Part shown: positions 6,001 through 8,557 of the stretch, piece after piece | How the letters are laid out: each line of letters opens with the position of its first letter | Position numbering within the stretch: position 1 is the stretch's first letter | Assembly (NCBI GenBank): GCA_963924565.1 | Contig: OZ004610.1 | Coordinates: forward strand, 29,512,001-29,576,000 | Source: Ascidiella aspersa | Taxonomy: Eukaryota | Direction: 5' to 3' | DNA: 64,000 nt | The notes under the pieces: model-generated | Database searches by the model: none | The model's input: the letters and a program-made list of their open reading frames with translations, nothing else | Told to the model about the DNA's origin: nothing | Position numbers and translations under genes: made by a program

Positions 6001-8557
6001 AAGGATCCTTGGTCACCAACAATTGATCTGTTCATCATAAAACCAATTGTTTGGTAAACATGTTTTAAGGCTTTTTAAAATAAAATTCAAAGAATGTTTT
6101 TATGTATTTTTGAATAGTAAAAATCGTCGCTTTAATGACAGACTTCAGAAGTTTGACTTACCGATAAGTTCAGGTTTTGCGCCTGAAATGATCTGGTAGA
6201 AGATGTGGTAGTTACGTTCTCCGTCCAGTTGGTAGATGACACGAGACTTCTCGAGCAGATCTGAAAATTTCATTCGTGTGTAATAAGGTTTGGCTTAGGT
6301 TGTGTCACGTTAAGTAAGATAAGGAAACTTACAATGCTCAATATCTCCTGAAGCCAACATTCCCGTGCTGCCGAAGTGAATACGGATGAACTTTCCCTGT
6401 TAGTCGATAAAGTGTTATTTTTCTTGTGGTAAACACGAGACAAAGCGACTTTATTTTTTATGTCGTAAATTTTGTTTTAATTTTTGTGGAGTTTGCAAAT
6501 CATGGTATAATGCTTACGAAACGGGAAGAGTTGTCGTTACGGACGGTCTTTGCGTTTCCAAAAGCTTCCATAGCCGGGTTACATTGTACGATCTGATCTT
6601 CCAAGGTGCCCTGAAATGAATTCGTGTGCAATTATGTGTGAGAATTCCGGTTATTTTGGTGGTAAAAACCGTTTGTCTACTATCGTTGAAAATAGTTTAT
6701 TATTCAACGTATCTCGGTCTTACCTCGCCTTCCTTTTGTGCTCCGTAAGCAGCGACTAAGGCAAAGTACTGGATGACCTTCTTCGTGTTGACAGTCTTTC
6801 CGGCACCAGATTCTCCGCTAGTTTAAATTGCATATGTTTTTTTATTTTGGTTGTGGATAAGAATTGTATGTCGCCTATATCTTTATATTTAAATAAGTGG
6901 TAGGCCTATTTTAGTGGATTTAACCAGTTATTTATGACTGTAAAACAGTATTTTTGTATTTATTTGCTCCTATTAACTTTTAACAACAACTCACGTGATC
7001 AACATAGATTGATTTTCCCGATCTGTAAAACAATAACAAGTATTAATTTGATGACAACGTATTTTAATATGTAAAAGTATTCATGTCGTGCTTGTGCGAA
7101 CTAACAGAGTTTTTTTTATGTTTTTTAAAAGATATCCATTTATGTATTTCTCGAATAACTAACTCATCAACATGTTGGAGTAAGCGTTGTCAGCAATAGA
7201 GTAAAGATGGGGAGGCATCTCAGTTCGTCTCTTTCCCTTGTAAGCAGCGATGACGTAAGGAGCGTATACGGGCAACATCTTGTAGGGATTCACGGTGACG
7301 CAGAAGAGACCAGAGTAGGTCTGAATGAGAAAACGGATGTAAAGATTTAAACCATAATCTGTGGTTGGCTTCGGTTGACTAATAGCTAATGAACAAAACT
7401 TCACATTTTTGCTTAAAAAATCAGATAAAGGCGTAGCAATTTACGGTACACAGGTTTTATCAAACTAATCTGTTGTTAAAACGATTGGACGCAATATACT
7501 CTTACGATTATATTAACAAAAATTAATTGCAAGATAAAATCTTTATAGAATCGCTAGTTTCGTTGTAAGTTCAAAACAGCAACTCACGTAGATCATGAAG
7601 GACTCGTATCGGGTTCGGAGGTTGTTCAAGACGCTGGCTTCGTTGAGGAAAGTCATGTTGGCCATGTCCTCGCACTTCTCGTAGCGCGGAGGATTCATCT
7701 CCTGAACGTCTTCTTCCTTCACCGTCATTTCCTGGGGACGAATAGGAATTTGCATGGCGAGGGTATAAAATAAATTGCAACATTTTTCGGGGTGATTTAC
7801 TTTTTATATGTTATTCTCTTAATGTTCAACTCTTTCAGGCTTGTTTTGTATTTTTATTTTCAAACACCAAAGTTGTGGTCAAAGCTTTTGAAGCTGACCG
7901 CATAGTCCTTAACCAGACTAAATAAAGAAAACTTGATGTTTACAGTGGATCTCTCCTTTTGTTAACTCATAAAATGTCAGCTGTAGGAATGACTTTTTTT
8001 CTAGTCTGGTAGCCAAATTGTGGTATTTGTTTCTGTTGCGCTTCATCGTATATGGCATGTTTGGTAGAAGTTTTCTTACTTTTCCTTCGGCACACGACTT
8101 GATGACAGCTTTTCCTCCTTCGTTCTTGATGATTTCTCCCTGGACGTAAGCATTCTCCTTGTCGGGGAACCAACAGTATTTCTTGCCTGTGACCATAAAT
8201 GACCACCGTGTTATAAGGGCGTTTCTCATTGTTGTTTGTTTTTCTTAATGGGTTCGGTTGAACTATAGTGTCGCAAGTCAAAATTTATTGAAAATATGAT
8301 ATTTCATGTGAATAATGTAACCGAAATACGGTTTAGATTCTAAATGGTTGATGGTAACACTAAACTTTTAAACACCCCATTAATTTCGTGTTATCATTCC
8401 AAAGACACCCAAAAAGTAAAAGGTATTAGAGAGCTTTAATTTATTTTTAAGCATGATTACCGTCGGGTTTCTTGGTCTGGTTTTCGAGAATCTTCTCGTG
8501 AGACATCCTGAGATACTGAGCCGCATCCTGGCACGCTTCGTAGTCGAAAGTTGCCAT
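1..8557 (-). CDS. Myh: Sarcomeric myosin heavy chain, copy A (multi-exon; 3' end beyond left window edge)
   Basis: ATG at 8557 ([18 protein letters not shown]). Exons encode P-loop GESGAGKT, switch I NDNSSRF, switch II DIAGFE, SH helix [21 protein letters not shown] and coiled-coil rod ([35 protein letters not shown]). Introns are GT-AG. Confidence 0.97.

Follow-up and report, generated by a model that had tools for sequence, protein, structure and literature searches.

The DNA analyzed here, referred to as the window, is a stretch of 64,000 nt that a search of its own genome placed at G000:C4:29512001-29576000. It harbors four of five near-identical muscle myosin heavy chain genes, and self-comparison revealed three of these copies on the minus strand and one in inverted orientation. 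The fifth gene, Z, lies beyond the left edge: positions 7300-7700 of gene A, used as a query against the same genome, yielded A itself (100%), gene D (99%), and a further match (99%) 14 kb to the left of A. For the analysis, flanks of 90 kb (left) and 40 kb (right) were added to the window. A sixth gene of the cluster is absent from this interval, and no N bases occur in the 194 kb inspected. On the window scale, the ATG codons are situated at -5407 (Z), 8557 (A), 22779 (B), 36593 (C), and, on the plus strand, 39583 (D). The genes are arranged as follows:

-15332 to -5407 (G000:C4:29496668-29506593), minus strand: gene Z, 36 coding exons, 1926 aa, wholly outside the window.
1 to 8557, minus strand: coding exons 2-32 of gene A, which runs on to the left of the window with its stop at -1353 (complete model: 36 coding exons, 1926 aa).
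12698 to 22779, minus strand: gene B, 36 coding exons, 1926 aa.
26689 to 36593, minus strand: gene C, 36 coding exons, 1926 aa.
39583 to 49367, plus strand: gene D, inverted, 35 coding exons, 1924 aa.

Exon borders of the models were set at GT-AG sites and then compared with the Ciona myosin P0004; the exon numbering includes an exon 1 that is presumed non-coding on the basis of the sequence alone. All introns of the five models are of the GT-AG type, internal stops are absent, and the encoded proteins are 2-10 residues apart. The gene A model is identical to Ciona P0004 at 1788 of 1926 residues (92.8%) and to a fish myosin at 1349 residues. A profile search detected PF00063 above cut-off in all five genes; exon 24 matches PF01576 (E=1.7e-19), exon 20 displays weak myosin head and IQ matches, and Ciona P0004 carries PF02736, PF00063, and PF01576. 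Judged by these resemblances, the five genes belong to the class II (muscle) myosin heavy chains of ascidians. The best-identity matches of exon 20 are Ciona and Clavelina myosins (92-95%), a likeness that is suggestive, and only suggestive, of membership in the ascidian Myh-Scp_Ta subfamily. The function of the cluster is likely ordinary, with several near-equivalent genes giving dosage of a muscle myosin. RNA run X7 contributed 69 reads on 9000-26500, with zero spliced joints among the reads shown; an odd joint in this run (4 reads, 2 starts) was discarded as a probable library chimera.

Several further features accompany these genes. Genes Z, A, B, and C finish via a 6-base last coding exon (e.g. 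12698-12703 and 26689-26694); the stop of gene D lies inside exon 36 (49239-49367), immediately ahead of a GT, and its C-terminus differs. A promoter block with TGACG and AGGTG words is conserved in Z, A, B, and C (at about 8900-8930, 23120-23150, and 37060-37085 in the window), and the same words plus a CAGCTG box are found in a different setting at gene D (about 39060-39085). These words may correspond to ascidian muscle enhancer sites (CRE, Tbx6, and MRF). A short, very high-copy interspersed repeat, MITE- or SINE-like by its behavior, occurs upstream of D (38782-38874) and again at 55414-55575; near D, its read depth reaches about 8,400x vs 6x, with many opposite-strand joints. To the right of D, an uninterrupted open frame of 421 aa (51040-52305, plus strand) weakly resembles Synaptobrevin at its C-terminal end (E=4.2e-5; 23.7 bits, short of the 26.4 cut-off). 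Elsewhere in the genome, G000:C6:6282635-6284827 (minus strand) carries an intronless myosin motor match (profile positions 2-678) in a 1045-aa open frame, possibly a retrocopy or an intron-poor gene; other myosin profile matches in the genome, unlike this one, cover short parts of the profile. Another myosin gene at G000:C8:17063673-17069424 (minus strand) has exon matches at cluster-like profile positions and may be a more distant muscle paralog.

Along gene A, the following blocks can be distinguished:

3890 to 6027, minus strand: homogenized core, exon 11 to intron 19; all five genes alike, pairwise divergence 0.3-4.1%.
6028 to 7320, minus strand: exon 5 to intron 10; Z, A, C, and D within 0.1-2.2% of one another, B standing apart at about 23%.
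7321 to 8186, minus strand: exon 3 to intron 4; divergence of 2.2-2.7% among Z, A, and D, with B at 20% and C at 32%.
8187 to 8460, minus strand: intron 2; Z and A 97% identical, B 70% and homologous (z=38), C and D unrelated (z<=0.2).

A preliminary description of the window had portrayed gene A as switching its affinity from B to the inverted gene D and back. Its alignments were reproduced. A 1-6034 is 97.9% identical to B 14052-20096, A 6028-8186 differs from the reverse complement of D by only 44 substitutions across 2153 aligned bases, and intron 4 of A (7321-7587) is 98% identical to that of D (40520-40785). B does differ from A in introns 10, 6, and 4 (20090-20257, 20911-21235, and 21617-21823), with identities of 52, 43, and 48%; the baseline for unrelated introns, obtained from 278 non-homologous intron pairs, is 56+-3.6%. 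Among sites informative for A, B, and D, the ratio of A=B to A=D amounts to 309:41 in 133-6027, 20:423 in 6028-8186, and 90:19 in 8187-8557, far beyond chance.

The boundaries inferred from these alignments did not hold. The likeness of A to D does not start at 6030, as divergence is 2.1% (45/2138) in 3890-6027 vs 2.0% (44/2153) in 6028-8186 (Fisher p=0.91). It is the distance between A and B that leaps there, from 45/2137 to 443/2032 (2% to 22%). Since the A-D distance is equal on both sides, the edge at 6030 is, by this comparison, the point where B leaves a block common to the other four genes. The stretch 6028-7320 is common to C too (2.2% from A), which carries Z/A/D-type introns 5-10 at about 34115-35258. 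The stretch shared by A and inverted D, not C, is 7321-8186, and intron 2 marks the 5' edge of the tract in D. Intron 3 of A is still alignable to B (82% globally, 90% locally). The supposed return to B is likewise half right: the promoter and intron 2 of A can be aligned to B, but at only 76-85% (60 differences at 408 aligned sites in the 430 bases upstream; 76% locally in intron 2), and Z is about 97-98% identical there, so that this resemblance is best read as old paralogy. Across almost its full length, the nearest partner of A is Z. A view of gene A as B-like with a D-derived tract of 2.2 kb is not supported; the gene is Z-like within the tract and on both sides of it.

A patchwork of this kind extends over the whole cluster. 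Sharing was scored at >=87% identity for 34 introns in five genes, with intron homology judged by shuffle z-scores; substitution-only distances failed to part homologous from unrelated introns. This scoring gave 11 sharing partitions, among them ZAD (introns 3 and 4), ZACD (5-8 and 10), all five genes (9, 11-16, 18, and 19), ZABC (20 and 29), BCD (21), ZABD (17, 23, and 26), and ABD (33). A is grouped with Z in 32/34 introns, with B in 25/34, and with D in 20/34. In seven segment trees, the sister pairings change along the gene; the per-intron alignments and trees, proposed earlier as a check, thus disagree in topology instead of sharing one. Recent duplications followed by uneven intron evolution or selection, with no conversion at all, would suit proteins that are only 2-10 residues apart. 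However, adjacent introns leap between about 50% and 98% identity with a changing partner, and no single duplication tree can account for the groupings ZAD (intron 4), ZACD (intron 5), BCD (intron 21), and ABD (intron 33), which renders this explanation extremely improbable.

The shared stretches were also assessed with an own Sawyer-type permutation test (1649 polymorphic columns, 500 permutations; not GENECONV). For the segments 8167-5981, the scores are 469 (A-D; null maximum 30) and 489 (Z-D; null maximum 37), and the C segments (7141-6035) reach 233-235, with null maxima of 18-19; these significances are overstated, since columns of unalignable introns were taken as independent. The 5' edges of the shared stretches lie at exon starts (B, exon 11; C, exon 5; D, exon 3). 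It is hypothesized that exons serve as anchors for tract ends; exons cannot localize breaks, and some edges fall within introns, as in intron 3 of C, where the first third is shared. The mean length of conversion tracts is given as tens to hundreds of bases in a review (PMC3924818). The longest perfect runs measure 346 bases (Z-D) and 272 bases (A-D), so the stretch of 2.2 kb has probably aged or is the sum of several events. Local high identity beside old divergence, discordant trees, and non-reciprocal sharing with flanks that are not rearranged together display the features of conversion tracts.

The discordant trees, the 11 sharing patterns, and a read depth that fits three copies of introns 3-4 (see below) support non-allelic conversion with the inverted gene D over a distance of more than 30 kb. 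The earlier proposal of non-allelic conversion or crossover with D is therefore supported for conversion and unsupported for crossover, as a crossover with D would have inverted the genes between Z/A and D or swapped promoters, and neither is seen. The class of mechanism named in the preliminary description is right, and donor, recipient, and boundaries need correction. Two successive crossovers, an inversion and its re-inversion, might have exchanged sequence reciprocally between D and either Z or A; the inverted orientation of D and its homology over about 10 kb would favor this. Yet a swap leaves the partners unlike each other within the tract, where they are about 98% identical; moreover, A, B, and C are in the orientation of Z, the promoters are unswapped, and later allelic recombination would have to mimic the pattern. 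Such an exchange is very unlikely.

The relation of A to its neighbors Z and B involves two further features:

1 to 290, minus strand: putative zone of an unequal crossover in A, reaching from exon 31 to about -400, with Z-type markers to the right and B-type markers to the left.
8558 to 12697, strand not assigned: 5' leader and promoter of A and the A-B spacer, a second copy of the Z-A spacer with a period of about 14 kb.

From about 290 rightward through the tract, the promoter, and the spacer, A equals Z with 0.1-2.4% divergence; only to the left of about 260 does it equal B, and a zone of mixed Z/B affinity extends from 261 to -375. Informative sites among Z, A, and B (ZA:AB) accordingly read 513:13 in 6030-8557, 71:7 in 1300-6030, 30:4 in 133-1300, and 4:93 in -1240 to 132. 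Gene Z with its upstream spacer aligns to A with its spacer (-15466 to -4141 vs -1485 to 9822, 97.7%), and the alignment continues at the same 14-kb period into B (-4141 to 6034 vs 9886 to 20096, 98.0%). The two spacer copies are about 1.4% apart in substitutions and are duplicated in register (-4141 to -1485 vs 9886 to 12564). In the A-B spacer, repeat fragments with many loose read ends are located at 9499-9530 and 10733-10952.

In an anti-Lepore layout, both parents are kept and the spacer is doubled. The same is observed here: the affinity of A switches once between its flanking parents at homologous positions, and the spacer is duplicated in register with both parents retained. Gene A is likely an unequal-crossover hybrid that received the promoter and the 5' four-fifths from Z and the 3' end from B. 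Divergence between A and Z is uneven (20 substitutions in 6996 bases at 325-7320 vs 28 in 1236 at 7321-8557), a contrast that points to subsequent conversion between Z and A within the core or to differing allele ages. A real conversion patchwork together with A as a Z/B hybrid, irrespective of direction, is very probable.

The direction of transfer was assessed by parsimony among the five genes and concerns two stretches:

39923 to 42091, plus strand: exon 3 to intron 10 of D, in which a D-specific promoter and intron 2 precede introns 3-10 of the Z/A type.
20090 to 21823, minus strand: B-specific introns 4-10 of B.

Within its tract, D is like Z/A, and it retains its own promoter, intron 2, and 3' end, with the genes in between on the strand of Z. 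Intron 2 of D has no detectable kinship to the other genes (z<=0.2), and its promoter has short words only in common with theirs. Introns 3-5 and 8-10 of D are 95-99% identical to the Z/A type, introns 6-7 90-91%; divergence between Z/A and D is 2.3-2.7% in 7321-8186 vs about 42% in 8187-8557. With B as outgroup, exon 3 to exon 4 contains six derived sites shared by Z and D, none shared by A and D, and three shared by Z and A. The Z-D sites (A coordinates) are 8010, 7911, 7823, 7777, 7772, and 7726, the last causing Met70Ile. Because of the six Z-D and zero A-D sites, the most recent exchange at intron 3/exon 4 of D was probably with Z, about 45 kb off. D is likely the recipient of intron 3, since this intron is homologous between B and Z/A/D (88-90% locally) and the Z/A/B lineage also shares the promoter and intron 2, to which intron 2 of D is unrelated; a donor in the Z lineage can be assumed here with considerable confidence. 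For introns 4-10, three events are required with Z as donor (an old transfer from C to B, then Z to C and Z to D) and four with D as donor, a count that inclines slightly toward the Z lineage.

In the opposite reading, introns 4-10 would be native to D and would have been copied to Z, before A arose, and to C, with B retaining the ancestral introns of the tandem genes and intron 3 alone passing from Z to D. Introns 4, 7, and 10 of B are unalignable to A, whereas introns 2 and 3 and the promoter of the two genes are 76-90% alike; this contrast counts in favor of a D origin, and by itself equally fits a foreign block in Z/A or in B. Also in line with a D origin, intron 4 of B is 77% identical to that of C over 166 bp, about the same age as the A-B likeness in intron 2 (76%), and C and D have details in introns 6-7 that are missing from Z/A. 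On the other side, this reading needs four events vs three, with neighboring tracts running in opposing directions, and intron 8 of B (84%, z=13) and intron 9 remain homologous to the shared type. It is rather unlikely, and it is the nearest surviving form of the idea in the preliminary description. A ghost donor for introns 5-6 of B was rejected: B 20910-21460, used as a query against the same genome, returned B itself and four 89-base exon-edge matches in the cluster (5/5 candidates). Upstream of B, at 24546-24621, 74 bases are replaced by 14 in runs X2 and X6, a length polymorphism.

Read data were consulted on the integrity of the assembly. Of eleven sequencing runs, none marked as long-read, five were mapped to two stretches. 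Run X1 shows no differences from the window over kilobases, is possibly the assembly's own material, and was not counted as independent. Run X4 (organism B) was discarded as an outgroup, comprising low-depth pieces near-identical to this genome and exon-only matches. Raw DNA reads of run X6 (about 1% of the run, 6.3x expected) were binned, with high-copy-repeat spacer bins and mixed-content bins excluded. Depth is 6.0x in five bins upstream of B and 5.9x in one B-specific intron bin; ten bins upstream of D average 4.0x, under the 6.0x baseline. Three repeat-free spacer bins reach 11.0x, i.e. 1.83x single copy; calculated from about 128 reads upstream of B and 116 in the spacer, this is a ratio of 1.83 +- ~0.24 that is also compatible with 1.5 and hence with a heterozygous duplication. 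Five core bins reach 24.2x (4.05x), below five copies under a 95% likeness filter. On D, intron 3 has 19.7x and intron 4 21.0x, or 3.3-3.5 copies by the 6.0x baseline. Contig depth of the spacer is 113-116 in X1 and 133-180 in X2, compared with 68-73 and 76-95 for single-copy DNA of B; contig depth is no copy number, and the spacer stands at about 1.5x in X1 and up to about 2x in X2.

An assembly artefact would mean that A is a false duplication of two haplotypes or that the tract in D was filled in from Z/A reads. The two spacer copies are about 1.4% apart, an allele-like level, and reads bridging the tract edge are not seen: no read or contig spans the intron 2-intron 3 junction of D, where the pieces of X1 and X2 stop at 39966 and 39960, the contigs breaking off at exons. 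However, a false duplication and a filled-in tract predict depth ratios of 1 and 2, and the values in X6 are 1.83x for the spacer and 3.3-3.5x for introns 3-4. In its introns 3 and 4, D carries private bases that set it apart from Z as well as from A; the one at 40158 in shared intron 3 has a contig depth of 59 (X1) and 75 (X2), near that of D single-copy DNA (55-57 and 91). The 194 kb without a single N speak in the same direction, and an artefact is accordingly considered highly improbable.

The X6 reads also bear on variation between animals. The allele rows considered are the 40 best supported of 215, unphased, at low depth, and from one run. At some sites, almost every read has a base that only a single assembled copy shows (40364, 20/20; 41362, 18/18; 42225, 21/22), and at 41311 a base found in no assembled copy occurs in 10/10 reads. 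At two of the derived Z-D sites, the A/B base is present in 15/15 and 10/15 reads. This pattern fits paralogs that change together between animals.

The following course of events is proposed. Genes Z and B, as direct repeats, would have mispaired, and a crossover near exon 31 would have generated A and the second spacer. Exons, presumably kept near-identical by selection, and the exon 11-intron 19 core, alike in five genes, would offer long homology for ectopic pairing. Break repair that paired in the core could then have copied outward, as a non-crossover, to varying ends (exon 11 in B, exon 5 in C, and exon 3 in D), with B retaining an older C-like block. A crossover between direct repeats would change copy number and yield hybrids like A; between oppositely oriented genes, as with D, it would turn A-B-C around, and no such rearrangement is observed. 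An exchange with D, whose crossover would invert the 45 kb in between, would therefore leave descendants only as a non-crossover or if the crossover product were lost. These outcomes of break repair and crossover follow established recombination models. The explanation as a whole, i.e. the conversion patchwork, A as a Z/B hybrid, and transfer from Z to D, is regarded as fairly probable.

Related systems are described in several reports. The ascidian Myh-Scp_Ta genes form 5-7 near-identical paralogs per species that group by species, and gene conversion among them is called not excludable (bioRxiv 10.64898/2025.12.09.693291). The present cluster resembles this expansion, with five near-identical genes and 92.8% identity to a Ciona myosin; unlike the accessible part of that preprint, in which no tracts are shown, the present analysis maps tracts at the level of single introns, together with an inverted member and a hybrid gene. 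Vertebrate skeletal MYH clusters and copy-number variants of stickleback MYH3C are attributed to unequal crossing over and homogenization by conversion (bioRxiv 10.1101/2025.10.28.684953; 10.64898/2025.12.22.696110). Gain or loss by unequal crossover, conversion, and grouping of copies within a species are common to these and to the ascidian genes. In the vertebrate survey, however, conversion plays a lesser and rarer part in same-strand arrays, whereas most introns of the ascidian cluster show conversion-like sharing and the inverted gene is included.

The anti-Lepore HBB/HBD gene is a chimera formed by unequal crossover, a duplication beside both parents (PMC4041002). According to this source, the parents typically lose activity or disappear once the fusion has become fixed; in the ascidian cluster, the frames of Z, A, and B are intact and 2-4 residues apart. 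Caenorhabditis hsp16, act-1/act-3, and hsp70 undergo interlocus conversion in both orientations and into short introns, with diverged flanks (PMC3966223). Conversion in either orientation, into introns and between diverged flanks, is shared with the myosin cluster. The inverted Caenorhabditis examples quoted there are adjacent, whereas about 45 kb and three genes separate D from Z, and the two share more than 2 kb, probably through several events. A tract-level conversion study of an ascidian myosin cluster was not found in the literature covered, in which subscription journals are incompletely represented.

The locus is an unusually clear example of concerted evolution of a known kind, and no new mechanism is proposed. 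It illustrates that a window edge hiding one paralog, here Z, can yield a false story of a switch and a return. Short introns and sharp edges make the cluster a natural system for the effects of tract length, orientation, and distance. The finding also bears on a question left open by the 2025 tunicate preprint, namely whether species-clustered ascidian paralogs are young duplicates or converted old genes. As the protein of D is 4 residues from that of Z over the compared length, despite an unrelated promoter and flanking introns, protein trees would misdate D. It is tentatively supposed, with some doubt prevailing, that conversion is ongoing, with kilobase tracts passing between Z and D over about 45 kb, unalignable introns being overwritten via exon anchors, and paralogs changing together between animals (the Ile70 block of Z and D being recent). 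If this is true, the species-specific clades of ascidian larval myosins would be old genes homogenized by conversion, not recent duplicates.
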